The position numbers and the translations under genes were made by a program. Positions 1 through 30,798 of a stretch of DNA of 32,000 nt are shown here, piece by piece. The notes below the pieces were generated by a model that ran no database searches, was not told the DNA's origin, and was given only the letters and a program-made list of their open reading frames with translations. The stretch spans positions 330,001 through 362,000 of the forward strand of contig JACKFV010000001.1 of the NCBI GenBank assembly GCA_020632335.1. The letters are read 5' to 3'. Every line of letters starts with the position of its first letter. Within the stretch, counting starts at the first letter, position 1. The stretch comes from Candidatus Saccharimonadota bacterium. GTDB taxonomy: Bacteria; Patescibacteriota; Gracilibacteria; UBA4473.

Positions 1-3000
1 AGGTCTCGGGGGCGTAGCGGGTATTCTCGGTGACGTAGTTGGCGTCTGGGTCACCCTCCAGCACGAGGTCTTGCAGTGTCTGCCGCACCAAAGCCGTCAC
101 CACGGTGGGGTCCAGGGGGGGCTCGGGAGCGTCGTGCAGTGGGAGGCGCGGCGTGTAGGGGTCGCCATTCAGGCCCGCTATACCAGTAGTCCGGAAGGTA
201 AGACGGTATCCCGGCACGGCCGTAGCGGTAGGCACGGTGAAGTCTGGGAGCTCATTCTCACAGGCATCGGTGAGGGGGTCACCGTTCTCCGCCGCGTGGA
301 TCTCAGCCATGTTACAGCGCATGTCGGTCTGCAGCTGGCGGGTCTGCTCGGTCAGGCCTTCCAGCCCCTGCAAGCTCTGCCCGTCCACCTCTATGACCTC
401 GGTATCGTGGGGTTTCTCCACCACCGGCGCTGAGGACTGGTCACGCGGCAGGCGCTGGGTGCGGTTGAACCGCAGCTGGTTGGCCCCCGTCAGCGCGGCC
501 TCTTGCGGGGGCAGCACGTTCTTCTTGAGGAGATTGATAACCTTCAGCAGTACCTTCACGGTACTCAGCACAGTGCGCAGTTGCTGCTTAACCTGCGGGA
601 TGTCCGGCGCAACGCCTATTTCTGGCAAGGACGCGATGGGGAAGGAGAAGGTCTCGGGCACGGTGATGGCCAGATACTTTGGCTCTGGGAGGAGCGTCAT
701 GGGCTGGAAGGGCGGTACGGGTGCGGTAGCTGGCAGCTGCGCGGGGGTATAGGGCTGCTGCAACTCCTCGGGGGTATCCAGCGTGGACTCGTAGGCGCTC
801 ATGCCGAGGGACGCATCGGGGAGGGTAAAGTCGCTCAGCTGGGGGATAACCGGGATAGAACTCTGCTGCGGCAGCAGCTGCATCTGCGGCAGGGGGAGGT
901 TCTGCGAAGCGCTGACGCCGCTAAACGACACCGAGAGGTCGGTGAAGTCCGGGAGGCTGATGTCGGGGAACTGGACGTTCTTCAACACCATTTTGGTCAG
1001 CAGCTGGATGATCTGCCCGCGCTCCATATTCCCGGTATGGAACTGCTCGCTCATACCGTCGAACATGCTGAAGATATCGGCGTACTGGCTCACCACCTGC
1101 TGGAAGGCCCCGGTGGCCTCCTCGTGCTCGGTCAGGCGCTGGCGCTGCGCGTTGCCCCAGTCGTTCAGCGTGCCCTGCAGCGCCTCCAGGCCCTCGGTGA
1201 TCTTCTCGGGCACGGTGGAGAGCTGCTGCTGCACGGTGAGCAGCTGCTGCTTCTGCGCGTCATAGCCCTGCAGGCGGCTGTCTTGCTGGCTCAGCTCATC
1301 GCGGCGCTCGGCGGTCTTCTCGAGGAAGTCCTGGGTCTGGTTCTCTATGGTGGTGGCGCGCGTCTCATACTCGGCCGCAAAGGCAGGGTCAGCGTAGGGT
1401 TTTTGCTTATAAATGGCAATTTCGTCCCGCCACTGGCGCTTGAACCGCTCTAGCTCTTGCCGGTGCTGCGGCTCCCAGCTATCCAGCGCCTGCAGGTAGT
1501 CCTCGCGCTGGTGGTCCCATTCCTCCAGCGTGGCGGGGCTGAAGACGGGATAGGGCACCTGCACGGGCTCCTCGGCGGTATTGGCCAGGGGGTGGTCATT
1601 CAGGTTGCTCAGCTCGTCCTGGCTCTCTTGCCGACTACTGCTGGGGCTAAGGCCCTCTACCACCGGCAGCGTAGCCTTGACATCTGGCACGTTGACCGCG
1701 CTGAGGTCCCGCCCAGACTCGCCCATGAAGTCGGTCAGCGGGTCGCTCTGCTTCTGCCGCGCGCCCAGGTGTACGTCTCCCGCGCCGCTCTTGCTGAGGA
1801 AATCATTACTGCTGAGCGCGTCGGCCAGTGGGATGTCGACGCTCGGGGGGCAGAGCCCTGGCAGCTGCACCTGCAGCCCCATATACAGGCACTGGGGCTT
1901 GATCATCAGCGGCTCTAGCGCTCCATAGTTCATCAGGCAGGCGGCCATACCTACATTCCCCGAGCTAGTAGGCATGACGTAGGCACGGAAGGTGGAGGTC
2001 TGTGGCGTGCCCGGCAGCGGGAACCAGAACACCGGCACCCCCGGCATAGCAGGCCCCGCCACAGTGATGGGCGGCGTATAGATATTCATCTTGCCCGGGC
2101 CGAGAAAGGACAGCGTATCCATCTGGAAGCCAAGGCTCAGGCCCTTGGTCTGCCCAGCGCACATGCCGCCACTGCTGGTGACGGTCTGCTCGGTCTCTAA
2201 CTGGGTCTGGAGGTCCGTGCTCACGCTCGTCCAGGCCTGCTTGCCGGGCGCCGACTGGTCACTCTCGGGCAGTACGTCCCACTGGTCGGGCAGGCCGTCA
2301 CCGTCACTATCACCGCGGAGGAGGTCCAGTACGTTGATATTCTCGATGATTTCCAACGCGTCTGGAGGCAGCAGCGGGCCGGTATCAGGCGCTGTGGGAG
2401 GCTCCGGCGGGAGGGCCGTACCGCAGGGGCTGGTGGTCAGCGGCAGCTGCGCGGGCGGCAGGGGGTAGGGGTCCCGGATATCGCTTGGGGGGAGCGCAGG
2501 CGCCTGCACCCCTCCACGGGCCACGGCGGGGTCTATCGGCTGCCAGTCATAGGGGACGTAGGTCCCGTTAACATTATCGTGGCAGCGCAGCTCTCCGGAG
2601 TCATATCGCACGATCACCTCGGTGTAGGCGTCGTTATCTACATTGACCGGGTAGATCTCTTGCACATGGCTGATGAGCGGTACCTGCCCGCCCATATGCT
2701 TGGGCCCGCCGTAGTTGTAGAGGGCATAGACGGTGTCTTCTATGCGGATGAGGAGGTCATCGGTGAGCGGCTCTCCGGGGGTGTCGAGGTTGGCCACAAA
2801 GAGCTGGTCTATCGGCGCGTTGGTAGGGCCCTCCCACACGGGGTAGCCGATGTCGGTCGCGATGTACTCTTTCTCCCGTGGGCTATCAGTCCCCAGGCGT
2901 ATATAGGGATCACCCATCAGCAGGAGCATATCATTCGCCCCGTACTGCGCCGCGTGCCCGGCGGTGGTGCTCACCCCATGGGCAAACTGTGAGAGGGGCT

Positions 3001-6000
3001 GCCAGGCGCCATTCCAGTTGCCGCTGGAGGCCCTGGTGACGTCTTCTATGCCCTCGCGGTCGCTGCCCAGGGCGTTGTAGGGTTCGGCAGAGCGGGTAGG
3101 GTCGATGAAGAGAGTACAGAGCGGCGAGACGCTACTCTCCCCCGTGAGACCGGGTAGTTGTTGCGCAGTGAAGAGCTCCAGGCTGCGTACCGTCCCACAG
3201 CGTACTGCGGGCGCGCGCACAATGCCGATGAACTCGCCGTCATAGCGCAGGTCCCACTCGGTGATCTTACGGGCGTCGCTGGGGGTGAGGGTCACGCGGG
3301 TATTCACGATGTATACGCCGTCGTTCTTATACGCTATCACGGGCACACCGCGCACCCACAGTACCCCCTTACGGAGCACGGCCTCCTGACGGGTGAGGAT
3401 GCTGTCTCGTATCGCCAACGCCCCACCAGAGAAAGCTCCCGGCGCTGAGCGGTAGCTGGAGAGCGGCACAAAGCTGCTGGGCTCAGTAAAGAGCGTGGTG
3501 GTCTGCGCGATGAGCTGCTGGCCGTACCAGAGCTGGGTCGTCTGTGGCGGGGTGAATTCCATCCGTAGTGAGGGCCCCACTGTCCCGTCCCTCCCCACAT
3601 AGCCGTACTGCAGCCGGGCGTCTGGGTCTTCGGCCAGGGTGGCCACCACGGGGGTTTTTTTGGTCGCCAGCGCGTGAGCAGCAATGTCCGCTGGGCCGTC
3701 AACATCCAGCCCCTGCACGCCCGTGATCACGCTCATGAGCGAGAGAGGAATGATGTCTTGCTGCGGCCCCGTGCGCACGACCTCCACCGTGAAGGTCGCC
3801 GGGACTACCCCGGGGATGGATTCGGCCACCATGTACAGCGTGCCATAGGTAGGCATACCCGTGATGGGATGCGCCCCCAGCGACGGCGCGGTACTCAGCT
3901 GCCACTGGATGTTTTGCCCTGCGGGGGCCACCATATGCGCCATAGCGTCGAAGTCATCATAGGCCGGCAGCAGCGGCACGGCGCCGCCCATGCCCTGTAT
4001 GGGGTTGCGGTAGCGGTCAAATACCTGCAGCTCTACCCCCACGCTCTGCCCCTGCGCCACGGTATGGTGGGCAAGTTTGGCCTCTATCTTGGCCGGGGAG
4101 CTGGGCGTCACGGTAAAGTGGTAGTACTGCGGCGGGATTCCCTCAGCCACCAGCACGCCCTCGGCCAGCCCAGCGCGGATGCCTGGCCCCACCGTCATAG
4201 CGCCATAGCCCCCGCGTATATACGCCTCGGATTCGACAAACTGCCCCACATAAGGGTTCTCAGCAATCACCTCCGCCACAAAGTCGTAGTCCTTCAGCAG
4301 CGCTCCGTCACTATGGTAGGCAGTGAACTGCACCAGCCGCGGGGTAGACTGGCCGGCCTCGACCGTGAGCGTCGGGGGGTCAAAGACCAAGTAGGGATCT
4401 GGATCAATGATGAAGCTGACCTCGCTCTCCAGCTCTAGCTCGGGGGAGAGAATCGCCAGCCGCGCCACGCCCTCGGTATCTGGCCGGGCACGGAGCTTCA
4501 GCGGGGCACTAGCGTCTCTACTGGCCAGGAGGGTTGTGATGCCCTCCTCTCCGGCGCCCTCCAGCTCTATCTTGCCATCCAGGCTGATGACGATGTAGGT
4601 GATCTCTGTCTCTGGTGCGGTATAGAGCGAGCGCTCGCCGTCGGCGTACACGGCATTACCGGCACTATCCAGCGGGAGGATCTTGGTCTGCAGGTACTCC
4701 TTACGCTGCAGCAGGTACTTGCTCTGGCGGCGCATGCCCAGCTGCGCCACGTCATCTGCCACCGCGCCCAGGGTCGTCTGGCTCAGCAGCGTACCGTCTG
4801 GATGCAGCAAGATGATGGTTACGCGGCCGGCCTGCGCGCCGCTGGTGGCGGTGGTGGTGGCCCGGCCATTCATGGGGATGATCGCCGACTGGCTGAACTG
4901 TAGCAGGGGGCTATCGGTCAGCAGCTGCAGGGTCATGCCATCCAGCGCGGTGGTGATGGCACCGGTACTATCACGGACGATGAAGTCCAGCTGGAGTGAT
5001 GGCGCACTGGGGTCACTCCTCAGTGGCAGCGGGGCAAACCCGGGCACCGTAGAGGAGGTGGCGTTCTGCGTAGTCGTCGCGCTAGCCTGCAGGGTGAGCT
5101 GCTGCGTGGCCTGCTTGGGGGTGTAGGTGGCGTTACAAAAGATGAAGTCTAGCACAGCGTCGTCCCAGGTGGGGGGCTGCAGCGGACGCTCCAGGCAGAA
5201 GTCTGGCTCTACGATGGCGCTACAGAGCTGGGTATATTCGGCCTCGGTCACCACTGCGGGGAGCCGGTGCTGCAGCGGCAGAAGTACCGCACGCCACAGC
5301 TGCTGCTCCAGCGAGGTAAATGACGAAAGCTGCAGGATAACAGACCAGTCGGGTCGCACCCGGTAGAGCGACAGCAGCGACGGCCGCTTCTCGCACAGCA
5401 CCATCATTGTCTCGGCCGCAGCGGTGGCCTCGGCGTCGGTGTAGTCGCTCAGCAGCTCCCAATCGCCCTCGTCGCGGTCTGGGGGGGTGGTGCCGGGAGT
5501 CGTCGGCCGGGGGGGGGTATCATCAGAGGGTGTCTCTGTTGGGGGGGGGGTCTCAGGCGCAGGGGTACTCGGGGGAGTCTCAGGCTCAGGGGGGAGTATA
5601 GTGGCGCAGTCCGGGCCCGCCACCGGCACGCAGGGGTCACGGTCGTCGGTGTCTAGTGGCGTGCCACCGTCGGGGAAGGTCTCATCGCCGTCAGCGTCCG
5701 TGCAGCCCTCAGGCGTAGTACTAGCCCCTGGGAGCGTCCCCGGGCAGGCGTCGTCCTCAGTGGGAACGCCGTCACCGTCTGGGTCTGTAGGGTCACAGGC
5801 GTTGCGTGGGTCTGCTGGGCAGGGGTCCTCGGCGTTGCTGGTGCCGTCGTTATCCTGGTCACAGAGTGGAGAAAGTAGGTTCGGGATGCAGGGGTTGGCG
5901 TCGTCTGGGTCGGCTCCTGGGGTGAGCGGTGGGAGGTCTGGGAAGGCGCCATCGTCATCGGCGTCGGTACAGCCGGTGCCATCTACCACCCCTTTCGGAG

Positions 6001-9000
6001 AAGTCAGCGGGCAGGTATCGTCCTCATCTGGCACCCCATCACCGTCGCTATCGGGCAGGGGCGCCGAGGGGTCACAGGCATTGCTGGAGTCAGTGGGGCA
6101 GGGGTCGTCTATGCCCACCAGGCCGTCGTTATCCTCATCACAGAGGGGATGCTGCGGGTTGGGGACGCATGCATTGGTGTCCTCGGGGTCGAAGAGAGGC
6201 GCCGTCACCAGCACGTCTGGGGAGTAGCCGTCGAGGTCGGTATCCGTGCAGCCGGCCTCGTCGACCACCTCCTGAGGGGCAGTAAATGGGCAGTCGTCCT
6301 CAGCGTCAGGGATGCCGTCGTTGTCGGTATCGCTGCCGCCTGGAGTGGTAGTGCCGGTGGTCACTCCGCTCGTCGTGCCGCTTGTGGTACTCCCGCTAGT
6401 GCTGCCTGTGGTGGTACCAGTGGTCTGGCCGTCTGTGGAGCCACTGGTAGTGCCGTCAGTGGATCCGGTGGTGCTGCCGGTGCTGGTACCGTCTGTGGAG
6501 CCGCTGGTATTCCCATCAGTAGTACCAGTAGTATTCCCATCAGTGCTCCCGTCTGTGGAGCCCGTGGTGCTGCCGGTGGTGTCTCCGCTAGTGGTACTGG
6601 GGGGCTGGGGCGGCGTGGGGGGTTGCACGGTCGGGAGCTCGCTCGGGGCACCATCACGCACGATGATCTCCACCGTATAGTCCCCATTTTGTGGGGGGAG
6701 CTGCGGCGGGGTAATGGGGGTGGGCTGGTAGTCAGGCGTCTCATCAGCAGGGATCTCCTTTGGCGCCTCCAGCACCAGCGACTCCAGCGGCGGCAGCGTC
6801 TCACTATAGAGGAAGCCCGCTTCGGCCTCCAGCGCGGCGTCATAGGCCGGGCCACGGGTGGTGAGCCGCGTGTGGCGGTTCTCCGTCACGATGTCTACCG
6901 TGGGCACCGGCAGGCTGTTATTGGTCAGTCGCATATCGCTCACCTCATAGCCGCGGTAGTTCCAGCTGCCGTCGTACCAATCGTGCAGCTCCTCACTGGG
7001 TTCGCGGTAGGTGCCGTCGTTATCCTCGCCCTGGTGCGCCAGACTGAGTGACTGCAGCACAAAGACATTTTTCTCGTCGATGGGGGTCTGTATCCACTCC
7101 AGCGCTTCCTTCAGCAGGCGGAAGTCTATGTCCTCCGCGAGCGCATTGGCGTCGTAGTAGGGGACCAGCGGGTGGAGCTCGTAGTACTGGGTGATGTACT
7201 CCAGCGAGGACTCACTAGCGGTGGGTGAGACCTTGGCGTAGTTATTGGCCGCGTCTACCAACCAGCAGCTCTCTATCCAGGTCACGGCGGTGATGTCTGG
7301 CGCGCTTTGGGTCAGCGCCTCATAGGCCGCGATGGCGTCGGCGTCCATACGCTTGTACTGGTAGGCCTCGTCACGGGTGAGTTTCTCCTCCGTGCGGGCG
7401 TAGCTACAGTGCATCTCCACGTCAGCGGGGGTGTAGCTGAGGTCTCCCAGATGGGTAGCGTCTTGGTACTGTTCCCACGCGGTTTTCAGCCAGGGCTCGA
7501 AGAGCGTCTCTCGATAAATAGCGGGCCACTCTATGGTGCGGGTGGCGGCCAGCTCGGCCTGGGTGATGGCGTTCTCGGCCGTGATGGTCTCTTGCAGTGC
7601 CTGCTGGCGGTCGTCTAGCATCTGCAGTACTCTGGCCTTGAAGGCCTCTACGGTGGCGGTGGTACTGGGTACGGGGGGAGTCGCTAGCTCGGTATGGGTG
7701 AAGATATTCGGCAGGTTGAAGCGGTAGGGGTTCCCACTCCCGAAGTACCACGAGGCTCCCCAGGGGCGGTCCTGCGGGGTCTTGGGGGCGGTGAAGTCAT
7801 CTACCTGCAGCGCGATGTCCTCGGTGGTGGGCATGAGGTGCTCCATATAACTCCAGAAACGGTGCACATCCATCAGCAGCCGGCCTTCATCTACCTCCCA
7901 CACCCGCAGCGGACTCTCGGGCACGTAGGGCTGGGTCTGCGCATACTGGGTATAGCTGGGCAGCGTCTCGGTGGGGCTGAAGGGATAGCGAGGGGCCACC
8001 AGCACGGGCTCGCAGGCGTAAGTGCCGGTGTCGAGCGAGCGGCCATACTGCGCGATGCCGGCCTCGGTATAGGTGGGGATGTCAGCATCGCGGACGTCCC
8101 AGTGCAGCCGCGGGATGAGGCTACACTCGGGCTCGGGCAGGTGGCCGTCCCACGGGGAGCAGGTGTCGGTGCTGGTGTCGCTCTCGGGAGGGGTCTCGTT
8201 CACACTAGCGGCGGTGTCGGCCTCGGTGAGGGTGCCCAGCTGGCTGATGGTTGCCTCGCCGGCCAGTACAGCACCCCCGGCACCACGGGCAAGACTCTGC
8301 CCGAGCCGCTGCAGGCGCTCTTGCTCCGCCGCGATAGGCCCCGGTTTAGGGTTGTCATTCAGCTGCCCGCGGCAGCAGCGCTCGGTCATGGTGGTCATGC
8401 GCGGGTTCTCGTAGTACAGGCTATAGAGCCGCTCGTCGTCTTTGCTGAGCATGGGTTCTTCTGCGGGCTCACCGGCATAACCCTCCACCTGGGGGTAGCC
8501 GCGCGACCAGCTGCAGTAGGGCGCCTCCAGCTGGCTGCGGTAGTGGGTACGCCACATTTGGTCAGCCGGGAAGAGGTCTATGAGGCCATACTCCGCGCCG
8601 GCAAACACCAGCGACTGCGGCGTCATGAAGTCCCTCAGGCGCCACCAGGGGTGCTTCTCCTCCATCACGCTGACCATACTGCCAAAGCGCGTGCCCTCCA
8701 GCTGCTGCATGGCGTGGGTCTGCACGGCGTCGTTAAAGCGCTTGAGGTAGAGCGCAGAGGCCATATCCTTAGCCGTGACGTGCTGGAGGGTGGTCTGCCG
8801 CTGGGTGGTACTCCACCGGCCGGCCTCGTTCATCAGCTGCTGGCTGTGGGAGAGGAAGCTCTCGTAGGCCTCGGTATAGCGCTTGGTGAACTGCTGAACG
8901 CTATTCTTGGTAAGGAGGTCTGGCAGGCGGTCTTGGTCACCGGAGGGGATTTCATCGGGCACCAGCTCTGGGGGGAGGAGGTCCCAGGGGATTTCCTCCA

Positions 9001-9952
9001 TAGGGTTGGAGTCGCCAAACAGCGCTTCGGCCCATTCGTCGGTATAGCGGCCATAGGCCCAGTTCTCGAGGTTACGGGCAAAATTCTCGTACTGTGCGCG
9101 GTCATAGCGGGTCATGCCCGGGTTCTGGTACGGCCCGTCAAAGAGGAAGGACCGCATGAGCGACTCCTCGTACGGCACGCTGTAGCTCTTGTCCCACGTC
9201 TCATCGTGGAAGTAACGCAGGCGGTCCGGGTCATCCGCATGGCGGTCATAGAGCCGCGCCAGGGCGTCAAAGTAGGTGCGATAGTCCGCGATGTCGTCGA
9301 AGCGAATAAGGCTCACCACTGCCTCCCAGACGTTATCAGCGTCCTCAGTGCGGGCGTCCTCATCATTCACAAAGAGGCCTTTCTCCTCATTCCACTCATA
9401 GAGCGGCGCGAGGAAGTCCCCGTAGGGGAAGGGGCTCTGCCACACATGGCCGTTTTTCTCCACCACGGGGAGGGGTACCTGCCCAATGAGGATCACGCTG
9501 TCGAGGTAGCTATGAGCCAGCCGTAGGTCAAAATGCGGCGCGAGTACGCCCGCGTGGTGGTCATCTACCCCGGGGGTGGCGGTGGGCTCTAGGCCTTGTA
9601 GGTAGAGGTAGCGCAACCCCGAGTAGAGGGCAAAGACACTGGCGTCCGCGGGCACGGGCACCACCACCGGGGCCACTGCGGCCTGGGCACTGAGGTCCTG
9701 CGCGTAGGCATCTATCTTCCCTCCTAGGGCGTTATAGAGGTTCTCCTCCACCAGCAGTACGGCCAGGGGCGTCATAACCGGTGGCGTGGCGGGCCCCCCC
9801 GGCGCAGCGGTACGGTTGACCAGGTGGTACGCCGGCAGATAGCCCAGTGGTGCGGCGATGGCCACCCAGTGCGGCACGAGCAGACTCACCAGGCACAGGG
9901 CCCCCAGGAAGGAACGCAGGTATCGACGCATTACTGCTGCAGACGGGATCAT
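1..9952 (-). CDS. Giant secreted/surface protein, 3' end beyond the window (at least 3317 codons here): signal peptide, unassigned N-terminal region, S/T/G linker, TSP3-like Ca-binding repeats, P/T linker, Big-like beta domains, coiled-coil region
   Basis: Manual translation of the minus frame (plus-strand codon starts congruent to 2 mod 3). The N-terminus reads (MIPSAAV)MRRYLRSFLGALCLVSLLVPHWVAIAAPLG. Spot checks near 9540-9420 (PHFDLRLAHSYLDSVILIGQVPLPVVEKNGHVWQSPFPY), 8458-8402, 6340-5620, 4100-4020, 3718-3662, 1501-1442 and 19-2 (TRYAPET) all fall in this one frame with no stop. The track lists no minus ORF in this frame over 10 kb, which fits one ORF lacking a stop in the window. Alternative starts are ATG 9931 and ATG 10027; 9952 is favoured because TATCGT ends 6 nt upstream. 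Confidence 0.85.
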   Translation of the reverse strand, partial: MIPSAAVMRRYLRSFLGALCLVSLLVPHWVAIAAPLGYLPAYHLVNRTAAPGGPATPPVMTPLAVLLVEENLYNALGGKIDAYAQDLSAQAAVAPVVVPVPADASVFALYSGLRYLYLQGLEPTATPGVDDHHAGVLAPHFDLRLAHSYLDSVILIGQVPLPVVEKNGHVWQSPFPYGDFLAPLYEWNEEKGLFVNDEDARTEDADNVWEAVVSLIRFDDIADYRTYFDALARLYDRHADDPDRLRYFHDETWDKSYSVPYEESLMRSFLFDGPYQNPGMTRYDRAQYENFARNLENWAYGRYTDEWAEALFGDSNPMEEIPWDLLPPELVPDEIPSGDQDRLPDLLTKNSVQQFTKRYTEAYESFLSHSQQLMNEAGRWSTTQRQTTLQHVTAKDMASALYLKRFNDAVQTHAMQQLEGTRFGSMVSVMEEKHPWWRLRDFMTPQSLVFAGAEYGLIDLFPADQMWRTHYRSQLEAPYCSWSRGYPQVEGYAGEPAEEPMLSKDDERLYSLYYENPRMTTMTERCCRGQLNDNPKPGPIAAEQERLQRLGQSLARGAGGAVLAGEATISQLGTLTEADTAASVNETPPESDTSTDTCSPWDGHLPEPECSLIPRLHWDVRDADIPTYTEAGIAQYGRSLDTGTYACEPVLVAPRYPFSPTETLPSYTQYAQTQPYVPESPLRVWEVDEGRLLMDVHRFWSYMEHLMPTTEDIALQVDDFTAPKTPQDRPWGASWYFGSGNPYRFNLPNIFTHTELATPPVPSTTATVEAFKARVLQMLDDRQQALQETITAENAITQAELAATRTIEWPAIYRETLFEPWLKTAWEQYQDATHLGDLSYTPADVEMHCSYARTEEKLTRDEAYQYKRMDADAIAAYEALTQSAPDITAVTWIESCWLVDAANNYAKVSPTASESSLEYITQYYELHPLVPYYDANALAEDIDFRLLKEALEWIQTPIDEKNVFVLQSLSLAHQGEDNDGTYREPSEELHDWYDGSWNYRGYEVSDMRLTNNSLPVPTVDIVTENRHTRLTTRGPAYDAALEAEAGFLYSETLPPLESLVLEAPKEIPADETPDYQPTPITPPQLPPQNGDYTVEIIVRDGAPSELPTVQPPTPPQPPSTTSGDTTGSTTGSTDGSTDGNTTGTTDGNTSGSTDGTSTGSTTGSTDGTTSGSTDGQTTGTTTGSTSGSTTSGTTSGVTTGTTTPGGSDTDNDGIPDAEDDCPFTAPQEVVDEAGCTDTDLDGYSPDVLVTAPLFDPEDTNACVPNPQHPLCDEDNDGLVGIDDPCPTDSSNACDPSAPLPDSDGDGVPDEDDTCPLTSPKGVVDGTGCTDADDDGAFPDLPPLTPGADPDDANPCIPNLLSPLCDQDNDGTSNAEDPCPADPRNACDPTDPDGDGVPTEDDACPGTLPGASTTPEGCTDADGDETFPDGGTPLDTDDRDPCVPVAGPDCATILPPEPETPPSTPAPETPPPTETPSDDTPPRPTTPGTTPPDRDEGDWELLSDYTDAEATAAAETMMVLCEKRPSLLSLYRVRPDWSVILQLSSFTSLEQQLWRAVLLPLQHRLPAVVTEAEYTQLCSAIVEPDFCLERPLQPPTWDDAVLDFIFCNATYTPKQATQQLTLQASATTTQNATSSTVPGFAPLPLRSDPSAPSLQLDFIVRDSTGAITTALDGMTLQLLTDSPLLQFSQSAIIPMNGRATTTATSGAQAGRVTIILLHPDGTLLSQTTLGAVADDVAQLGMRRQSKYLLQRKEYLQTKILPLDSAGNAVYADGERSLYTAPETEITYIVISLDGKIELEGAGEEGITTLLASRDASAPLKLRARPDTEGVARLAILSPELELESEVSFIIDPDPYLVFDPPTLTVEAGQSTPRLVQFTAYHSDGALLKDYDFVAEVIAENPYVGQFVESEAYIRGGYGAMTVGPGIRAGLAEGVLVAEGIPPQYYHFTVTPSSPAKIEAKLAHHTVAQGQSVGVELQVFDRYRNPIQGMGGAVPLLPAYDDFDAMAHMVAPAGQNIQWQLSTAPSLGAHPITGMPTYGTLYMVAESIPGVVPATFTVEVVRTGPQQDIIPLSLMSVITGVQGLDVDGPADIAAHALATKKTPVVATLAEDPDARLQYGYVGRDGTVGPSLRMEFTPPQTTQLWYGQQLIAQTTTLFTEPSSFVPLSSYRSAPGAFSGGALAIRDSILTRQEAVLRKGVLWVRGVPVIAYKNDGVYIVNTRVTLTPSDARKITEWDLRYDGEFIGIVRAPAVRCGTVRSLELFTAQQLPGLTGESSVSPLCTLFIDPTRSAEPYNALGSDREGIEDVTRASSGNWNGAWQPLSQFAHGVSTTAGHAAQYGANDMLLLMGDPYIRLGTDSPREKEYIATDIGYPVWEGPTNAPIDQLFVANLDTPGEPLTDDLLIRIEDTVYALYNYGGPKHMGGQVPLISHVQEIYPVNVDNDAYTEVIVRYDSGELRCHDNVNGTYVPYDWQPIDPAVARGGVQAPALPPSDIRDPYPLPPAQLPLTTSPCGTALPPEPPTAPDTGPLLPPDALEIIENINVLDLLRGDSDGDGLPDQWDVLPESDQSAPGKQAWTSVSTDLQTQLETEQTVTSSGGMCAGQTKGLSLGFQMDTLSFLGPGKMNIYTPPITVAGPAMPGVPVFWFPLPGTPQTSTFRAYVMPTSSGNVGMAACLMNYGALEPLMIKPQCLYMGLQVQLPGLCPPSVDIPLADALSSNDFLSKSGAGDVHLGARQKQSDPLTDFMGESGRDLSAVNVPDVKATLPVVEGLSPSSSRQESQDELSNLNDHPLANTAEEPVQVPYPVFSPATLEEWDHQREDYLQALDSWEPQHRQELERFKRQWRDEIAIYKQKPYADPAFAAEYETRATTIENQTQDFLEKTAERRDELSQQDSRLQGYDAQKQQLLTVQQQLSTVPEKITEGLEALQGTLNDWGNAQRQRLTEHEEATGAFQQVVSQYADIFSMFDGMSEQFHTGNMERGQIIQLLTKMVLKNVQFPDISLPDFTDLSVSFSGVSASQNLPLPQMQLLPQQSSIPVIPQLSDFTLPDASLGMSAYESTLDTPEELQQPYTPAQLPATAPVPPFQPMTLLPEPKYLAITVPETFSFPIASLPEIGVAPDIPQVKQQLRTVLSTVKVLLKVINLLKKNVLPPQEAALTGANQLRFNRTQRLPRDQSSAPVVEKPHDTEVIEVDGQSLQGLEGLTEQTRQLQTDMRCNMAEIHAAENGDPLTDACENELPDFTVPTATAVPGYRLTFRTTGIAGLNGDPYTPRLPLHDAPEPPLDPTVVTALVRQTLQDLVLEGDPDANYVTENTRYAPET
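5640..6340 (-). repeat. Thrombospondin-type-3-like calcium-binding repeat region inside the giant CDS (protein-level repeats)
   Basis: Codon-by-codon translation gives DTDNDGIPDAEDDCP...GCTDTDLDG...CDEDNDGLVGIDDPCPTDSSNACDP...DSDGDGVPDEDDTCP...GCTDADDDG...CDQDNDGTSNAEDPCPADPRNACDPTDPDGDGVPTEDDACP...GCTDADGDE. The DxDxDG loops have conserved Cys spacing and recur in modules of roughly 75 aa. Confidence 0.7.
6338..6600 (-). repeat. S/T/G-rich low-complexity linker with 60-nt (20-aa) periodicity inside the giant CDS
   Basis: The motif cgtctgtggagcc recurs at about 6431, 6491 and 6551. Translation reads ...TTSGDTTGSTTGSTDGSTDGNTTGTTDGNTSGSTDGTSTGSTTGSTDGTTSGSTDGQTTGTTTGSTSGSTTSGTTSGVTTGTTTPGG. 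Confidence 0.6.
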
Positions 9953-10044
9953 AGCCACACGATAGGCCAGCACCGTAAAAAGCACAAAACTGCTCGACAC
10001 TTTCTCTTGCCTGTGGTATACAGTCATTGTTACATATACTTCTC

Positions 10045-10332
10045 ATGCAGTACCTCACACACCTGGCCTCAGCACATTTTGGCGCTCGACTCCTGAATCA
10101 AAGGAGTATTGGTGAGCAGCTTAAAATAGTGGGTGGATCCATCGGTGAAGGCCTGGGACAGATACCAGAAGCCGCTGGCAGAACTCCAGAGACCGCAGCA
10201 GAGGTAGTAGGTACCACCGCTAAAACAGCTATAGATGGGGGTGCTGCTATGGTAAAAAAAGCCACTAACCTAGGAAAAGAGCATAACAAAACCCCTGACA
10301 GCGACCCCGACAACAAGAAGGGCAAGAAGTAG
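10045..10332 (+). CDS. Small hypothetical protein, Gly/Ala-rich with Lys-rich tail (start uncertain; the track ORF begins at TTG 10027)
   Basis: The ORF ends 25 nt upstream of a good rho-independent terminator on the same strand. It lies in an AT-richer patch whose codon usage differs from its neighbours. No clear promoter or RBS was found, and the overlapping minus ORF 10098..10337 cannot be excluded. Confidence 0.35.
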   Translation: MQYLTHLASAHFGARLLNQRSIGEQLKIVGGSIGEGLGQIPEAAGRTPETAAEVVGTTAKTAIDGGAAMVKKATNLGKEHNKTPDSDPDNKKGKK

Positions 10333-10356
10333 AACACTACCGGTAGCAGCAGCTAG

Positions 10357-10384
10357 AACCCCTCAAAAGTGCTTGAGGGGTTTT
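10357..10384 (+). terminator. Rho-independent terminator
   Basis: The stem cccctcaa (10359-10366) pairs with ttgagggg (10373-10380) around a 6-nt loop and is followed by TTTT (10381-10384). Confidence 0.6.
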
Positions 10385-10406
10385 ATGTATTCGCTATGCT
10401 GCGGCT

Positions 10407-10826
10407 ATGATACCTGTGTATATCCCCCAAGATTTCTTCGACCTGCGCGACAAGACGCTGGAGATCCACCGCTACACCGTGGCCGAGCACCCCAATGGCG
10501 TGGTGACCACCCTCTACGCCACTACCGAGAGTGACCAGGCACTGGTGCTGTACCTGCTGTGGCGCAGTGATACCGTGGAGGGTTATGCCGGTGTGCGGCT
10601 GGATAACGAGGAATACGCGCACCACCACCTCTCCATCGCGGAGTACGAGACGATAGTGGAGACGACCCTGGGGGAACTCAAGCGCCGCAAGGAGTACAGT
10701 GACGCGCTGGCCGCCAAGGAAGAACGCCTGCAACGCCAAGAGGCGCTCAACGCTGAGGAGCAGCAGAACCGAAGCGACGCTGAGGCTTTCATCGACCAGA
10801 TGCAGGAGGGCGACGCGTGGACCTAG
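10407..10826 (+). CDS. Hypothetical protein (139 aa) with an acidic, coiled-coil-like C-terminal half
   Basis: The translation looks protein-like, whereas the overlapping minus ORF 10383..10886 looks like an antisense shadow. TATGCT (10395-10400) ends exactly 6 nt before the ATG, and TTGAGG lies 16 nt upstream of it. Confidence 0.6.
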   Translation: MIPVYIPQDFFDLRDKTLEIHRYTVAEHPNGVVTTLYATTESDQALVLYLLWRSDTVEGYAGVRLDNEEYAHHHLSIAEYETIVETTLGELKRRKEYSDALAAKEERLQRQEALNAEEQQNRSDAEAFIDQMQEGDAWT

Positions 10827-10842
10827 TGTGGACCTGATAATG

Positions 10843-11700
10843 CTAGCGACCCTCACGCTCAGCGCTCTGCCGCAAACTCTCCTCAAAGGCGTCTAGGTGA
10901 AACACCCGCGTGTGCCACTTGCCGTCATCGCCCTGCTCTAGGTACTGCAGTACGCCCCCCGTAGCCGAGAGGAACTGCACGGGCGCGGTACTGAGTTGCG
11001 TCTGGGTGTACTCGTCGCCACGCATCCAGAAGAGTAGCACCCCCCCTGTAGATGGCAGATCATAGCCCACCGTCACCCGGGGGGTGGGGGTCGTCATCGA
11101 AGTGGGCACTCCCACCGCAGGAGTAGTCTCTGATAGAGGTTCTCCGGTGTCGGTATTCGTAGAAGAGGCTTCTGGAGATGCTTCTGGAGCCTCAGGTGTG
11201 GCGGTCGCCTCGCTAGCTACAGGAGCAAGGGGGGTATCCGGAGTGGTAGTGGGCACCGGGGGAGATACTAGAGGCGGCTCTATAGGGGCTGTAGTGGCCT
11301 CCTCAGGAGGAGCAGAGGGCTGCTCCAGTGCTTTTATCGGCTTGGGGACGGTGGCACGCTTCTCGGCTACTACTCGGTCAGCCAGCTCTTGCAGTGCTCT
11401 GAGTTCGGCCTCCAGCGCGGGGTTGGGCACCGCCGGGAGCACCACGGTATCCTCACTGGCCTCCATTTGCTCGATGGCGCGTTTCTCCGCCGCGGAGAGA
11501 AAGCCCTGCGCAGCGGTCATCCCCACGTCATTACTCACGCGCGTCACGGGCACGGTACTCTGTATCTTGAGCGGTTCGAAGTCCTGCACCAGCTCGGAGA
11601 AGAGCACCCCACGCTCATCTTGTAGGGCACTGCGTTCGCTCTGGAGGCTACAGCCCGTAACGAGCAGACTCAGCAGCAGAACGAGCCAAAGAGGGTTCAT
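10843..11700 (-). CDS. Lipoprotein with a Pro/Thr/Glu-rich linker
   Basis: The N-terminus MNPLWLVLLLSLLVTGCS carries a lipobox (VTGC). A long P/T/E/A-rich stretch follows. TAGAAT (11707-11712, minus strand) ends 6 nt before the ATG. Confidence 0.8.
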   Translation of the reverse strand: MNPLWLVLLLSLLVTGCSLQSERSALQDERGVLFSELVQDFEPLKIQSTVPVTRVSNDVGMTAAQGFLSAAEKRAIEQMEASEDTVVLPAVPNPALEAELRALQELADRVVAEKRATVPKPIKALEQPSAPPEEATTAPIEPPLVSPPVPTTTPDTPLAPVASEATATPEAPEASPEASSTNTDTGEPLSETTPAVGVPTSMTTPTPRVTVGYDLPSTGGVLLFWMRGDEYTQTQLSTAPVQFLSATGGVLQYLEQGDDGKWHTRVFHLDAFEESLRQSAEREGR

Positions 11701-16311: not shown

Positions 16312-16866
16312 ATGCAAGTGGTAAACAAACACATCAAATTCCTCCTCTCCACGAATGGAGTTATTCTCTTCTCTGGTGCGCTGCTAGGGCCAATATATGC
16401 GCTTTTTGTCGAAGAGATTGGGGGAGATATTCTAGACGCAGGATTGGCTGGGGCTGTATTTGCTTTGTCTGCAGGGCTCACAAGCCTTATTGTGGGATTC
16501 AAGGGAGATACAATTCAAAATAAAGCACATGTTTTAGCGCTCGGGTATGGAGTTATTGCTCTCGGTTTTTTCTCCTATACGTTCGTGAATTCGATGACAA
16601 CATTGCTGGTAGCACAGGTCATCGTCGGCTTCGGAGAAGCTCTCTATAGCCCTATGTTTGATGCGCTCTATTCACGACATCTTGATGAAGGGCATTTTTC
16701 TTCTGAATGGGAAATTTGGGAGTGTATGAATTACTGGGTGAGCTGCATTGCAGCTTTGATAGGGGCCTTCTTTGTAGAGCAATACGGGTTTACACTTCTC
16801 TTTATTGTTATGGGAATACTGGCTCTATTGAGCGCCATACGGGTTTTGTTATGGTCGAAAAAATAG
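16312..16866 (+). CDS. Six-helix membrane protein resembling one half of an MFS transporter
   Basis: Six hydrophobic segments are visible. GFKGDTIQNK resembles MFS motif A between helices 2 and 3 of a half-domain. The segment is AT-richer than its flanks. TAGAGT (16300-16305) ends 6 nt before the ATG. Confidence 0.7.
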   Translation: MQVVNKHIKFLLSTNGVILFSGALLGPIYALFVEEIGGDILDAGLAGAVFALSAGLTSLIVGFKGDTIQNKAHVLALGYGVIALGFFSYTFVNSMTTLLVAQVIVGFGEALYSPMFDALYSRHLDEGHFSSEWEIWECMNYWVSCIAALIGAFFVEQYGFTLLFIVMGILALLSAIRVLLWSKK

Positions 16867-17316: not shown

Positions 17317-17460
17317 ATAAGATTTAGCTGTCCTGCGCTTTGCCGTTTCTCCAGACTCCTGATCATTCCTCTCCTCAATATCCCCCCTCAATGAGGTATA
17401 GATATAAACAGTCATGTGGCTCTCAGCGCCTCTGTAAAATCAGTCCAAAAATAGAGAGGC

Positions 17461-17550
17461 TGGCGGACAGGGAGGGATTCGAACCCTCGGTGATGTTGCC
17501 ACCACACACGCGTTCCAGGCGTGCCCATTCGACCACTCTGGCACCTGTCC
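17461..17550 (-). tRNA. tRNA-Ser (anticodon GGA), long variable arm, CCA encoded
   Basis: The reverse complement reads GGACAGGTGCCAGAGTGGTCGAATGGGCACGCCTGGAACGCGTGTGTGGTGGCAACATCACCGAGGGTTCGAATCCCTCCCTGTCCGCCA. The anticodon loop is CTGGAAC. Confidence 0.9.
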
Positions 17551-17558
17551 ACTCCTTC

Positions 17559-17586
17559 TGTATAGGGCGATAGAGGACGCTGTCTA
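17559..17586 (-). promoter_or_regulatory. Candidate tRNA-Ser promoter (TAGACA, 16 nt, TATACA) only 8 nt from the mature 5' end
   Basis: On the minus strand the -35 is at 17581-17586 and the -10 at 17559-17564. The tRNA +1 is at 17550. Confidence 0.45.
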
Positions 17587-17603
17587 GAAAAGTCCGGCAC
17601 AGA

Positions 17604-17631
17604 TTGACATGCTGCCAAGAATATGTATAGT
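17604..17631 (+). promoter_or_regulatory. Near-consensus promoter (TTGACA, 16 nt, TATAGT) in front of an unlisted 59-codon ORF
   Basis: The -35 is at 17604-17609 and the -10 at 17626-17631. The ATG at 17640 lies 8 nt after the -10. Confidence 0.45.
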
Positions 17632-17639
17632 ATTATGTT

Positions 17640-17819
17640 ATGCGACGCGCCATCACCCAGTTCCAGAACTTCTGCACCCAGCACATCATGGGCAACGCCG
17701 TCCAGGGGGTAGTGGGGCGCAATGCAGAGGTAAAAGCACTCCAACAGCAGCACAACGCCACTTACAATACACAGCGGCAGCAGCTCCTCCGGCAAGTACA
17801 GCAACGGCAAGCGGTCTAG
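17640..17819 (+). CDS. Candidate small protein (59 aa, Gln-rich), one codon below the 60-aa cut-off of the ORF track
   Basis: The manual translation is MRRAITQFQNFCTQHIMGNAVQGVVGRNAEVKALQQQHNATYNTQRQQLLRQVQQRQAV. A strong promoter lies directly upstream. The stop TAG overlaps the stop of the convergent gene within the palindrome CTAG (17816-17819). Confidence 0.35.
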   Translation: MRRAITQFQNFCTQHIMGNAVQGVVGRNAEVKALQQQHNATYNTQRQQLLRQVQQRQAV

Positions 17820-18430
17820 AGGCACGCCGCCTCACATGCCTGGGTGGTCGTGAAGGGAAGCTCCGCCGTGCACCCCAGTACCGCACCCCGCTCACACGCG
17901 CCGGTATCTGGGTTAAAAAACACCCCCGTGAACTGTTTCTCGCAGCGGTCTATGCCCCGTAGTGGCGCTGTACAAGACCCCGCCACCGCGCTATCCGCCT
18001 TACAAAACCCGCTATAGAGGATCTCCGCGCCATGGCGCTCGGCCTCACAGTGGCTCCCAAACCCCATCTTCTGCCCCAGCAGCAGCCCGCACACGGGGTC
18101 ATTTTCCTTCTCGCAGACTCGCTCGCTATCCACCACCGTATTCACGCACACCCCGCGCAGGTCCTCGGTAGTGGGGTCATAGTCGCAGTAGAGCGCTGGG
18201 TGACAGTCCATACCCGTGGTCCCACCGCAGGCCTCCCCCTCGGCAGAGACCACCGTGGCCTCCATCTGTACGTCGGTCAGGGTGGATTCCCCGTTGTCGA
18301 GCTGAAACACCACTGGCGCCTTGCGGTCTTCATCCTGCCCCACCGGGCGCCACGATTCCCCCTCCAGCAGCTGCCAGAGCCACCAGGCGGCCCCCAGTAT
18401 CAGTACGGTAATGAGGAGTTTTCGAAGCAT
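17816..18430 (-). CDS. Secreted or anchored Cys-rich protein with a Kazal-like and a Kunitz/BPTI-like module (putative protease inhibitor)
   Basis: The N-terminal hydrophobic helix is MLRKLLITVLILGAAWWLW. The Kazal hallmark is CEKENDPVCG...HCEAERHGAEILYSGFC. The C-terminal CTAPLRGIDRCEKQFTGVFFNPDTGACERGAVLGCTAELPFTTTQACEAAC has spacing C-x9-C-x15-C-x7-C-x11-C-x3-C, against C-x8-C-x15-C-x7-C-x12-C-x3-C in BPTI. VFFNPDTGAC aligns with BPTI YFYNAKAGLC. Confidence 0.8.
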   Translation of the reverse strand: MLRKLLITVLILGAAWWLWQLLEGESWRPVGQDEDRKAPVVFQLDNGESTLTDVQMEATVVSAEGEACGGTTGMDCHPALYCDYDPTTEDLRGVCVNTVVDSERVCEKENDPVCGLLLGQKMGFGSHCEAERHGAEILYSGFCKADSAVAGSCTAPLRGIDRCEKQFTGVFFNPDTGACERGAVLGCTAELPFTTTQACEAACL

Positions 18431-18431
18431 C

Positions 18432-18461
18432 AAAAAAGCACTACGCGGTAAGTGTAGTGCT
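18432..18461 (-). terminator. Rho-independent terminator after rpsG
   Basis: On the minus strand agcactac pairs with gtagtgct around a 9-nt loop and is followed by TTTTTT (plus-strand A-run 18432-18437). Confidence 0.6.
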
Positions 18462-18495
18462 TCTCTCGTCCTTGTCTAGTCTCCTGCGCAGAACC

Positions 18496-18987
18496 CTAGT
18501 ATCGCGCCAGGTGCGCAAAGGCCCTATTCGCCTGCGCTACGCGGTGGACTTCTTCTTTCTTCTGCACGGCATAGCCGGTGTCGTTACTCGCGTCATGCAG
18601 CTCCAGTGCCAGCCGCTTGTACATCGGGATGCCCTTACGCTTGCGCGCGCCGTCCAGTATCCAGCGGATAGAGAGCGTCTGCTGGCGCTTGGGGGTCACC
18701 TCCATAGGGATCTGATACACCCCACCACCGATACGCTTCGGCTTCACCTCCATATTGGGCGTTGCGTTCTGCAGCGCTATTTCAAAGCTCTGCTTGGGGT
18801 CCTCGTGCCCTCGGCGGTGCAACTCGTCAAAGGTATCGGTTAAGATACGCTGTGCGATGCTCTTCTTCCCATCATGCATGAGGCAGTTCACCATCTTGCT
18901 CTGCAGAGGATCTGAATAGCTAAAGGGGTTACTGTACTTCATTTTAGGGGGAGTAGCCTGGTCGGTAGCTGCGGGGGTATCTGCCAT
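18496..18987 (-). CDS. rpsG: 30S ribosomal protein S7
   Basis: The conserved S7 sequence is present (...KSIAQRIL...GGGVYQIPMEV...RWILDGARKRKG...AFAHLARY), and the gene sits immediately after rpsL. Confidence 0.95.
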   Translation of the reverse strand: MADTPAATDQATPPKMKYSNPFSYSDPLQSKMVNCLMHDGKKSIAQRILTDTFDELHRRGHEDPKQSFEIALQNATPNMEVKPKRIGGGVYQIPMEVTPKRQQTLSIRWILDGARKRKGIPMYKRLALELHDASNDTGYAVQKKEEVHRVAQANRAFAHLARY

Positions 18988-18998
18988 AGAGAAAGAGA

Positions 18999-19409
18999 TT
19001 ATTTAGATTTTTTGGCGCCGTATTTACTACGCGCCTGTTTACGTTTGCCCACGCCTTGCAGGTCCAGCGCGCCCCGCACAATGTGGTAGCGCACCCCCAC
19101 CAAGTCCTTCACTCGGCCCCCACGCAGCAGCACCACACTGTGCTCCTGCAGGTTGTGCCCCTCTCCAGGGATGTAAGCATTCACCTCGTACTTATTCGTC
19201 AGCCGCACCCGTGCTACCTTCCGCAGTGCCGAGTTTGGCTTCTTTGGCGTCATGGTACTCACCTTCACACACACCCCACGACGCTGCGGCCCAGGGTTGG
19301 GCGCTGACTGCGTTTTCAGCGAATTAAAGGTAGTCTGCATGGCCGGAGCCTTGGACTTTCGGCGTTTATCCGTCCGGGCATTTCTCACGAGTTGGTTGAT
19401 AGTAGGCAT
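18999..19409 (-). CDS. rpsL: 30S ribosomal protein S12
   Basis: MPTINQLVR...[18 protein letters not shown]...[34 protein letters not shown] is canonical S12. Confidence 0.97.
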
Positions 19410-19420
19410 ACGAAGGAGAG

Positions 19421-23281: not shown

Positions 23282-23367
23282 AGGTATACGGGGGCTAGCC
23301 TAGACTGGCAAAGTCTAGACGCCTAAGCGCGGTTGTCAACTGTATCTGGGCGAATCACTAGGCAGAC

Positions 23368-24852: not shown

Positions 24853-24893
24853 GCCCCTACCATAAGGAGTCCTTCCACCGAAGCAAGTGAATC

Positions 24894-27812: not shown

Positions 27813-28258
<446 letters not shown>

Positions 28259-30760: not shown

Positions 30761-30798
30761 ACTCTCACTCTACTTCTCTATACTAAATTGCCAAGTCC
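30424..30798 (-). repeat. Right 375-bp inverted repeat
   Basis: See the left copy. Identity ends immediately after the A8-CG run. Confidence 0.85.

Follow-up and report, generated by a model that had tools for sequence, protein, structure and literature searches.

Introduction

Bacteria that belong to the candidate phyla radiation (CPR), or Patescibacteria, depend on other cells, and few of the molecules with which they contact a host are known. Giant exported proteins are already a known hallmark of this lineage. For example, the genomes of Ca. Peribacter, with 58.5% GC, have genes for large extracellular proteins of 1,219-3,861 amino acids (aa), which have been proposed to serve in attachment and to be where strains chiefly vary (PMC4736985). 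Similarly, in Vampirococcus lugosii, giant membrane and surface proteins of 1,392-4,163 aa with integrin/FG-GAP, DUF11 and fibronectin-type domains have been proposed to function in host recognition and attachment (PMC8080830), and Peregrinibacteria are enriched in proteins of more than 5,000 aa (PMC11573180). Here we analyse a giant gene in a 32,000-nucleotide (nt) stretch of DNA, called the window throughout, from contig JACKFV010000001.1 (positions 330,001 to 362,000 of the forward strand) of assembly GCA_020632335.1, a Candidatus Saccharimonadota bacterium that GTDB places in the Gracilibacteria (UBA4473). The first 10 kb of the window is filled by one minus-strand open reading frame (ORF). 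Judging from its sequence, the encoded protein is a divergent member of an unnamed giant-protein family found in metagenome-assembled genomes (MAGs) of Peribacteria, Peregrinibacteria and Gracilibacteria. The ORF is thereby placed in a family of ~500 clusters with two uncharacterised conserved modules; given what is known of the lineage, the finding is otherwise expected. We propose, with a probability of roughly 0.6, that the protein is a long surface fibre for attachment to a host cell or surface, a reading suggested by its sequence and in line with the roles proposed for the large exported proteins of Ca. Peribacter and Vampirococcus and with the abundance of huge proteins in Peregrinibacteria.

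Results

A minus-strand frame that is very probably a gene

A preliminary description of this DNA had reported a stop-free minus-strand ORF of more than 3300 codons across the first 10 kb. Indeed, the reverse complement of positions 2..9952 translates into 3,317 codons with 0 stops, a run whose probability from base composition is ~1e-37. The frame stays open to the window edge. A mechanical ORF list, which leaves out ORFs running off an end of the source, accordingly has no minus-strand entry of 150 aa or more in this frame, and this explains why it had appeared unlisted.

GC contents at codon positions 1, 2 and 3 are 0.655, 0.472 and 0.794 for the giant frame, to be compared with 0.62, 0.375 and 0.771 for rpoC, with 0.581, 0.352 and 0.796 for the gene of a 904-aa neighbour, and with a third-position GC (GC3) of 0.778 for the gene of a 909-aa protein with Ig-like domains, all in the window. 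The plus-strand ORFs that overlap the frame (7694..9526, 503..1453 and others) have first-position values of 0.75-0.85 and GC3 values of 0.60-0.68, which is the mirror image expected of a GC3-rich gene read on the opposite strand. None of them matched Pfam. Two that were looked up in a collection of 15 billion proteins (7694..9526 and 6149..7051) were absent, whereas the true neighbours are present (MCB9809666-679, from a Candidatus Peribacteria MAG). The suspicion that these plus-strand ORFs are antisense artefacts is thus borne out: examination turned up neither an in-frame stop in the giant frame nor homologues and coding-like bias for its plus-strand competitors.

The absence of stops, the neighbour-like GC3 and collinear homology to P0001, P0008, P0056 and other proteins described below form the basis for annotating the giant ORF, which we regard as very probably genuine and as coding for a giant exported member of the family. 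Horizontal acquisition of the gene was considered and rejected, because its GC3 equals that of its neighbours and its higher overall GC stems from codon positions 1 and 2, that is, from amino-acid composition. The GC content of the window, ~58-64%, fits the 58.5% of Ca. Peribacter riflensis (PMC4736985); Peribacteria are a class of Peregrinibacteriota within the CPR.

The closest upstream in-frame stop is TGA 10045-10043, and three ATG codons follow it as start candidates, at 10027, 9952 and 9931. Two of these, 9952 and 9931, had been put forward before. The latter is likeliest from sequence comparison, since Met1 of P0001 aligns to the ATG 9931 methionine and the resulting N-terminus is a textbook Sec signal; ATG 9952 is disfavoured by the same alignment. 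Residues are numbered from ATG 9931, giving 3,310 visible aa. No match to a sigma-70 consensus was found in the 5' leader.

The window probably holds the 5' three quarters or so of the gene. About 870 aa of P0001 lie past the last aligned block, and by collinearity ~750-900 aa of the window protein are estimated to be missing, so that the full protein would probably measure ~4,000-4,200 aa. A 49-mer from the window edge had no exact match in genome_contigs or metagenome_contigs, and scanning metagenomes under the guidance of the protein's final 500 visible residues revealed no relative.

A family of giant proteins defined by two modules

Searching 5.8 billion proteins with the giant protein returned four matches, namely P0001 (3,666 aa, 'hypothetical', E = 1e-79), P0002 (4,988 aa, Ca. 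Peregrinibacteria, 'S-layer homology'), P0003 (5,257 aa) and P0004 (5,433 aa, Ca. Peregrinibacteria, 'DUF11'). The window protein is collinear with its relatives in 3-4 blocks at 21-30% identity. By BLASTP its N-terminal module (N-module) matches P0001 at E = 2e-44 (28% identity) and P0002 at E = 2e-20. Its middle module is collinear with P0001 998-1919 (E = 1e-32), with P0004 2006-2464 also aligned, and residues 2489-3187 align to P0001 2162-2796. The same block order recurs in P0008, P0056, P0139, P0047 and others.

A word-indexed profile search for further homologues gave only two proteins. The window protein and four homologues were then combined into an N-module profile, which, searched exhaustively against 1.84 billion cluster representatives, matched 503 representatives at E <= 1e-3, of which 303 scored E <= 1e-30. 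In nearly all cases the module starts among the ~110 N-terminal residues. Most of these proteins measure 3,400-6,066 aa, and the shorter matches look like contig-truncated fragments. The protein had earlier been ranked among the largest bacterial gene products; its size is real, and its unusualness was overstated in view of these relatives. We compared 156 proteins, comprising the 150 best of the 503 profile matches and six from earlier searches, which carry the database names 'hypothetical', 'S-layer homology domain-containing' and 'DUF11 domain-containing' (P0001-P0156). BLAST matched 147 of these 156 to the window protein, mainly over residues 100-400, 1800-2500 and 2600-3000, with only 0-5 subjects covering residues 484-1112.

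Scanning one genome per GTDB species revealed 117 loci that encode the N-module. Of the 80 that were kept, almost every one bears a Peribacteria, Peregrinibacteria, Gracilibacteria, Altimarinota or Patescibacteria title; a further two, labelled Bacteroidales and Nitrospirota, probably result from mis-binning. From these alignments the family appears to share one order of parts: a signal peptide, an N-terminal alpha/beta module, a variable region, an Ig-like/FG-GAP module and a Cys/Pro-rich and coiled-coil C-terminal module (C-module). The N- and C-modules define the family, and neither is in Pfam or matches the PDB.

Predicted architecture of the window protein

The coordinates of the giant gene, of the parts of its product and of its two upstream neighbours are collected in Table 1.

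Table 1. Layout of the giant gene and its predicted product, and two neighbouring genes, in window coordinates
Feature	Residues	Window position	Strand	Remarks
Giant-protein ORF	1-3310	2..9931	-	3,310 codons from ATG 9931 (3,317 from alternative ATG 9952); 3' end and stop beyond left window edge
5' leader or promoter region		9932..10045	-	reaches in-frame TGA; holds alternative starts ATG 9952 and ATG 10027
Predicted Sec signal peptide	1-26	9854..9931	-	MRRYLRSFLGALCLVSLLVPHWVAIA, predicted cleavage before AP; sole strongly hydrophobic segment in 3,310 aa
Family-defining N-terminal module	54-483	8483..9772	-	alpha/beta core ~aa 54-228, then helical region
Lineage-specific region	484-1112	6596..8482	-	only aa 690-961 (window 7049-7864) align, to a few closest relatives
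Ser/Thr/Gly(Asp)-rich low-complexity linker	1113-1197	6341..6595	-	imperfect 12-60-nt tandem repeats
Three Cys-rich repeats (93, 89, 66 aa)	1198-1445	5597..6340	-	seven DxDxDG motifs, thrombospondin type 3 kind
Pro/Thr/Glu-rich linker	1446-1490	5462..5596	-	24 Pro in aa 1401-1500
Conserved middle module	1604-2487	2471..5122	-	beta-rich; degenerate Big_1/invasin-type Ig-like and FG-GAP-like repeats
Conserved C-terminal module	2536-3187	371..2326	-	alignments to P0001, P0002, P0004, P0008
C-module start motif		2276-2311	-	DSDGDGLPDQWD; further motif opening the C-module
Last visible residues (123 aa)	3188-3310	2..370	-	protein runs on past window
285-aa lipoprotein		10843-11700	-	lipobox LVTGC
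VirD4/TraG-like ATPase, 904 aa		11742-14456	-	Walker A GKSGVGKS at aa 461; N-terminal hydrophobic segments

The signal peptide (MRRYLRSFLGALCLVSLLVPHWVAIA, followed by AP), which had already been recognised as Sec-type, reads from the sequence as three Arg in the n-region, a hydrophobic core with a Kyte-Doolittle value of 2.1 over residues 8-26 and an A-x-A cleavage motif. No lipobox is present at the N-terminus, and homologues likewise begin with a hydrophobic N-terminus. Apart from the signal peptide, the visible 3,310 aa showed no transmembrane-like segment, and LPxTG was not found in them either. The protein is strongly acidic (D+E 14.1%, K+R 6.1%) and contains 39 Cys (1.2%), concentrated in the three repeats.

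A 23-sequence alignment of the N-module gave an AlphaFold model in which the core, modelled as a beta-alpha-beta-alpha-beta sandwich with two beta-hairpins, reaches a predicted local distance difference test (pLDDT) score of 80-95, followed by poorly modelled helices; a run with a 5-sequence alignment (pLDDT 40) was not used. Foldseek returned no significant PDB neighbour of the model (best E = 0.058), and what it matched were folds of a generic flavodoxin- or Rossmann-like kind. A resemblance to peptidase C25 or to caspases had suggested itself and was dropped for want of statistical support, caspase-11 ranking 37th (E = 0.42). No Pfam family matched the 23 members consistently, and the N-module profile found nothing among PDB sequences.

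The window copy carries an insert of its own of ~1,100 aa that includes a Ser/Thr/Gly spacer, three disulfide-capable DxDxDG repeats and a proline spacer. Residues 1101-1200 hold 57 Ser+Thr and 22 Gly, and the DNA of this linker has tandem repeats at 6356-6520, with repeat family D1 at 6358-6600. The Cys-rich repeats are 53, 52 and 41% identical in pairs, with a DNA period of 267-279 nt and about six Cys per full unit. Strict DxDxDGxxDxxD motifs start at residues 1201, 1294 and 2541, and the relaxed DxDxDG form occurs eight times in all. The TSP_3 family (PF02412) matches the repeat region with E = 0.0016 and 18.5 bits, under the gathering cutoff of 25, and against the PDB the region weakly matches the TSP3-like part of the OmpA-family structure 5wtl (E = 9e-4). 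A role as target of a diversity-generating retroelement was rejected, since neither a template/variable repeat pair nor a reverse transcriptase occurs in the window.

The middle module contains segments that we label degenerate Ig-like (for example ~aa 1951-1979) and degenerate FG-GAP-like (~aa 2375-2460, window 2552-2809), claiming no membership, because the window protein itself has no such Pfam match: Big_1, Invasin_D3, FG-GAP and FG-GAP_3 gave nothing at E <= 1. The labels come from relatives. P0002 has above-threshold matches to Invasin_D3/Big_1 (1911-1998), GH2_C5 Ig-like (2013-2107) and FG-GAP_3 (2473-2534) and a weak one to DUF11, while P0001 has sub-threshold matches only, to GH2_C5 (1328-1360) and FG-GAP (1809-1826); pairwise alignments map these Ig-like and FG-GAP matches to window residues ~1951-1979 and 2376-2396. 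Across relatives the above-threshold domains are Invasin_D3, Big_1, FG-GAP_3, DUF11, SLH and TSP3_bac.

The C-module opens with DSDGDGLPDQWD. After this come a Cys/Pro/Gly-rich segment, a coiled-coil or helical stretch (~aa 2795-2975, window 1007-1549), an LPxxP segment rich in Pro and, last, an amphipathic helix. A weak SMC match at residues 2809-2971 is a coiled-coil signal. A six-sequence profile of the module retrieved only coiled-coil noise from the PDB (geminin, HA2, apolipoproteins, all E >= 0.009), and Pfam gave no match.

SLH, PilY1/Neisseria_PilC and RTX-type repeat families are likewise absent from the Pfam matches of the visible 3,310 aa, and NCBIfam gave nothing meaningful above threshold. 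Curated domain libraries thus name almost nothing in this protein, the sub-threshold TSP_3 match being all that Pfam offers, which agrees with the earlier remark that most of its length has no nameable motif. The further description of the protein as functionally opaque was overstated: adhesin-type elements are recognisable, though degenerate, and large extracellular proteins are documented in the lineage (PMC4736985, PMC11573180).

Genomic context across the family

At the loci of P0002, P0003 and P0004, a same-strand series of genes lies immediately before the giant gene, encoding in turn a ~460-aa protein, a ~205-aa protein, PilB/T2SSE, PilC/T2SSF and one or two N_methyl pilins. Downstream of the giant gene, such pilus-linked loci have four genes whose products are exported proteins of small or medium size, with ordinary signal peptides or anchors and no prepilin motifs. 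This cluster, from the ~460-aa protein to the four exported proteins, was seen at L003 (1610-26709), L005 (765-28076), L006 (351-28435) and ~30 more loci, and in L003 and L005 it lies directly downstream of rplJ-rplL. To compare branches we called a locus window-like if tblastn to the window N-module gave at least 100 bits, and counted only loci with at least 7 kb of upstream sequence. By this measure PilB and PilC genes lie upstream on the same strand in 31 of the 37 loci of the distant, larger branch and in none of the eight loci of the window-like branch.

Loci of the window-like branch have other upstream genes, encoding a soluble protein of ~590 aa, a polytopic membrane protein of ~750-835 aa (6-8 predicted transmembrane segments) and a protein of ~1,800 aa. 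None of the three matches Pfam. They are conserved at L007 (2-9792), L010, L012, L015, L016 and L002 (23071-25320). The window has neither arrangement: it contains no PilB, PilC or pilin gene, and no genes of ~590, ~800 and ~1,800 aa precede the giant gene.

Could the window protein then be a component or accessory of a type IV pilus, such as a giant pilus-associated or pilus-tip adhesin with a role like that of PilY1/PilC? The pilus cassette before the giant gene in most larger-branch loci speaks for this, as does the requirement for type IV pili in host adhesion by Patescibacteria (PMC12102498). For the window protein itself we consider it unlikely, since its own branch is unlinked to pilus genes, its signal peptide is of the Sec type and not a prepilin one, it has no PilY1/Neisseria_PilC match, and even the four proteins encoded downstream in pilus-linked loci are without prepilin motifs. 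More speculatively, the main family branch, behind its PilB-PilC-pilin genes, could be the missing host-contact element of a pilus-based episymbiotic or predatory apparatus, and the window ORF might be a neofunctionalised offshoot, in a branch uncoupled from pilus genes and in a copy whose WHG and CxxC positions are replaced and which has gained a calcium-binding insert of ~1,100 aa. We offer this as a tentative idea that is possible without being probable.

Upstream of the giant gene in the window are the lipoprotein gene and the gene for the VirD4/TraG-like ATPase (Table 1). Counterparts of these two and of a 139-aa ORF were sought near the giant genes of relatives and none was found, and the window has no other type IV secretion gene. 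Orphan VirD4-like genes are common in Patescibacteria, where only 148 of 5,713 homologues are near virB4 (PMC12102498). The adjacency is therefore treated as coincidental, and a functional link between the giant gene and the ATPase was rejected; plus-strand ORFs also intervene. Two such ORFs, one of them (10407-10826) annotated in the deposit, separate the giant gene from the lipoprotein gene, and the giant gene is thus probably its own transcription unit.

Discussion

Proposed role and its alternatives

The reading that we prefer is that of a long surface fibre. The giant protein would be exported by the Sec pathway, with no membrane-spanning segment in its visible part, and would project from the cell envelope as a long, calcium-stiffened fibre. 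Its Ser/Thr/Gly and Pro spacers may be extended linkers, its disulfide-capable DxDxDG repeats calcium-stiffened rods, and its Ig-like and FG-GAP-like parts shaft or binding elements. The N- and C-modules could form functional ends specific to the family, one perhaps serving as anchor and the other making contact. Such a fibre would mediate contact with or attachment to another cell, the presumed host of this metabolically dependent bacterium, or to a surface, with the variable and low-complexity parts supplying strain-specific reach and specificity. Sec export, extracellular location, calcium binding and an adhesive role are all predictions from sequence, and taking the role by itself we place adhesion or contact at even odds or slightly above. 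At ~12 kb the gene would be ~1% of a ~1.25-Mb genome, the size of completed Ca. Peribacter genomes, and carrying it therefore implies strong selection.

Several findings weigh against this reading or against parts of it. Pfam recognised no domain above threshold in the window protein, the Ig-like and FG-GAP assignment is transitive through alignments of 21-25% identity, and the N-module model is only partly confident, with a mean pLDDT of 63. As regards an anchor, close relatives end in a conserved '...RGDFY...VFEI...' segment with neither a transmembrane helix nor a sortase signal. The window copy is also the odd one out at conserved positions. Of 45 N-module columns with 80% conservation or more in the other 22 sequences, it kept 32 (71%), the lowest of 23, with the others at 80-100%. 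Positions invariant in the other 22 are changed in it (G145S, H203E, G204A, I206V and N224L), and in the C-module the family's 'CGGCGLP' has become GGMCAGQTKGLS and 'CPxCxxxRG' has become 'HTGNMERG'. Finally, the 5.8 billion proteins searched yielded no self-match, even though that collection does contain the neighbours; the giant protein may lack a deposited protein record, for example through a pseudogene flag caused by something beyond the window.

A structural envelope protein, meaning an S-layer-like or cell-wall-associated scaffold, would account for the high acidity and the calcium-binding-type motifs. Distant members P0002 (55.6 bits) and P0004 carry SLH, and envelope components are a heavy investment of Peribacteria, from which S-layer genes are also on record (PMC4736985). 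We find this quite improbable for the window protein: the visible 3,310 aa contain no SLH or other S-layer domain, its closest relative P0001 has no SLH, and a ~12-kb gene would be an unusual size for a lattice-forming S-layer subunit.

The divergence just described raises the question of a decaying or disrupted pseudogene, or of an assembly chimera, that is merely open within the window. The near-invariant W-H-G-V-I reads W-E-A-V-V here, FDxNH reads FDALA and G145 is S145, conserved Cys motifs are lost, no self-match was retrieved, and the upstream neighbours are not conserved in any relative. Fold-defining N-module residues are kept, including GxxPLPVVxKxG, PYxDF, W202, Y281 and R295. The altered residues suggest either a diverged function or relaxed constraint, at a site that may be functional. 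Outright decay is argued against by the intact 3,310-codon frame and the normal codon signature, which would not be expected of a decaying gene, and collinearity with full-length relatives is held across all modules. The missing self-match may instead reflect the absence of the source record from the searched sets, as the source contig also appears to be missing from the DNA and gene-position indexes, the latter having no entry for rpoC or for the gene of the 904-aa neighbour. We therefore hold decay or misassembly to be very improbable.

The slimmest chance goes to a secreted enzyme or toxin carrier with a catalytic or toxic N-module or unseen C-terminus delivered to host or prey, which could draw on the three-layer alpha/beta kind of core modelled for the N-module and common in hydrolases, on the W-H-G motif and other polar residues conserved in the family and on the predatory habit of related CPR bacteria (PMC8080830), yet finds no significant Foldseek neighbour, no enzyme or toxin family among the Pfam, NCBIfam and PDB sequence matches, and in the window copy a conserved His lost to Glu.

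A surface fibre for attachment thus stays our preferred account. In the sister branch the giant gene consistently comes after type IV pilus genes, and the N-module, the C-module and the calcium-binding-type repeats are targets for work on host attachment. Two modules unmatched in Pfam and the PDB, together with the split into pilus-linked and pilus-unlinked branches, could matter to CPR biology, the evidence for this coming mostly from outside the window.

Other features of the window

On the plus strand, a small ORF (10027-10332, ending ...DNKKGKK) that is absent from the protein collection is followed at 10336-10390 by a GC-rich hairpin, CCCCTCAAAAGTGCTTGAGGGG, and a run of T, which may be an intrinsic terminator. 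The 285-aa lipoprotein was found only on a 2.7-kb Logan contig. The 90% cluster of the VirD4-like protein also holds a Bdellovibrionales-labelled fragment, probably from a mis-binned contig.

A second surface-type protein of 909 aa, with Big_1/Invasin_D3 and fn3 domains, is encoded at 24894-27623 on the minus strand; its gene shares with the giant gene a DNA repeat encoding DxDxDG-type motifs (repeat families D2 and D5).

The window also carries prmC, clpP and several tRNA genes. A plus-strand ORF at 16312-16866, named 'MFS transporter' in the deposit, encodes a 184-aa MFS_1 fragment, about half a transporter, in a patch of 47% GC between tRNA genes, and is likely to be a remnant left by truncation. 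The window departs from the gene order usual for the rpoBC and str operons: within 17412-24936, rpoC (19421-23281, minus strand) is preceded by a gene for an M32 carboxypeptidase instead of rpoB, and rpsL and rpsG, which follow rpoC, are followed not by fusA/tuf but by a 205-aa ORF of no assigned function and a tRNA cluster.

A low-GC island (28265-31000, 41-44% against ~60%) starts at tRNA-Lys(ctt), right after the transfer-messenger RNA (tmRNA) gene at 27813-28258. It holds a large serine integrase (28331-29704; phrog_95, E = 1e-85) and ORFs like those of insertion sequences (IS) or transposases, and is probably a mobile element that integrated at the tmRNA/tRNA-Lys site; an att-like direct repeat was looked for and not found. 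An inverted repeat of 382 nt (29694-30075 and 30417-30798), 99% complementary and with 341 nt between its arms, adjoins the gene of the serine recombinase/invertase, and transposase-like ORFs overlap it. An invertible segment, a pair of IS or an artefact of assembly could each explain it.

Comparison with known systems

The nearest relatives of the window protein are the other members of the unnamed giant family, with which it shares the N, middle and C modules in the same order, a signal peptide and a class of lengths that is mostly 3,400-6,066 aa. It differs from them in its identity of 21-30%, in its unique insert and in the loss of the WHG, N224 and CxxC positions.

Among described systems, the large extracellular proteins of Ca. 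Peribacter riflensis belong to the same organism class and are likewise very large and predicted to be exported; their variation among strains by short indels fits a Ser/Thr/Gly linker encoded by tandem repeats, as in the window protein (PMC4736985). The likeness is by description, and that paper stresses Cys-rich proteins with ~7% Cys, against 1.2% here (PMC4736985). The Vampirococcus lugosii proteins, also likened by description, come from a related CPR lineage and have recognisable Pfam/SMART domains, where the window protein has none above threshold (PMC8080830).

With the giant adhesins of other bacteria, that is, invasin/intimin with Big_1 domains, the RTX adhesins LapA, SiiE and MpIBP, and Ebh, the window protein shares a general design: a long acidic rod containing repeats, calcium-binding elements and Ig-like domains. 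In contrast to these, it has a Sec signal in place of a C-terminal type I secretion signal (its own C-terminus lies outside the window), its visible part has no RTX nonapeptides, no beta-barrel anchor and no LPxTG, and its repeats are few and degenerate. Similarly, its Cys-rich units share with the thrombospondin type 3 and TSP3_bac repeats (PF02412, PF18884) the Cys-flanked DxDxDGxxDxxD motif, with three strict and eight relaxed matches, but they score 18.5 against the required 25 bits and form a non-canonical unit of 89-93 aa with six Cys and three motifs each. PilY1/PilC tip adhesins are large, Sec-exported and calcium-binding, as the window protein is predicted to be, in their case with a beta-propeller, and the larger branch of the giant family adjoins pilin genes; the window protein, however, has no match to the PilY1 domain, is 3-4 times larger and belongs to the branch that is not linked to pili.

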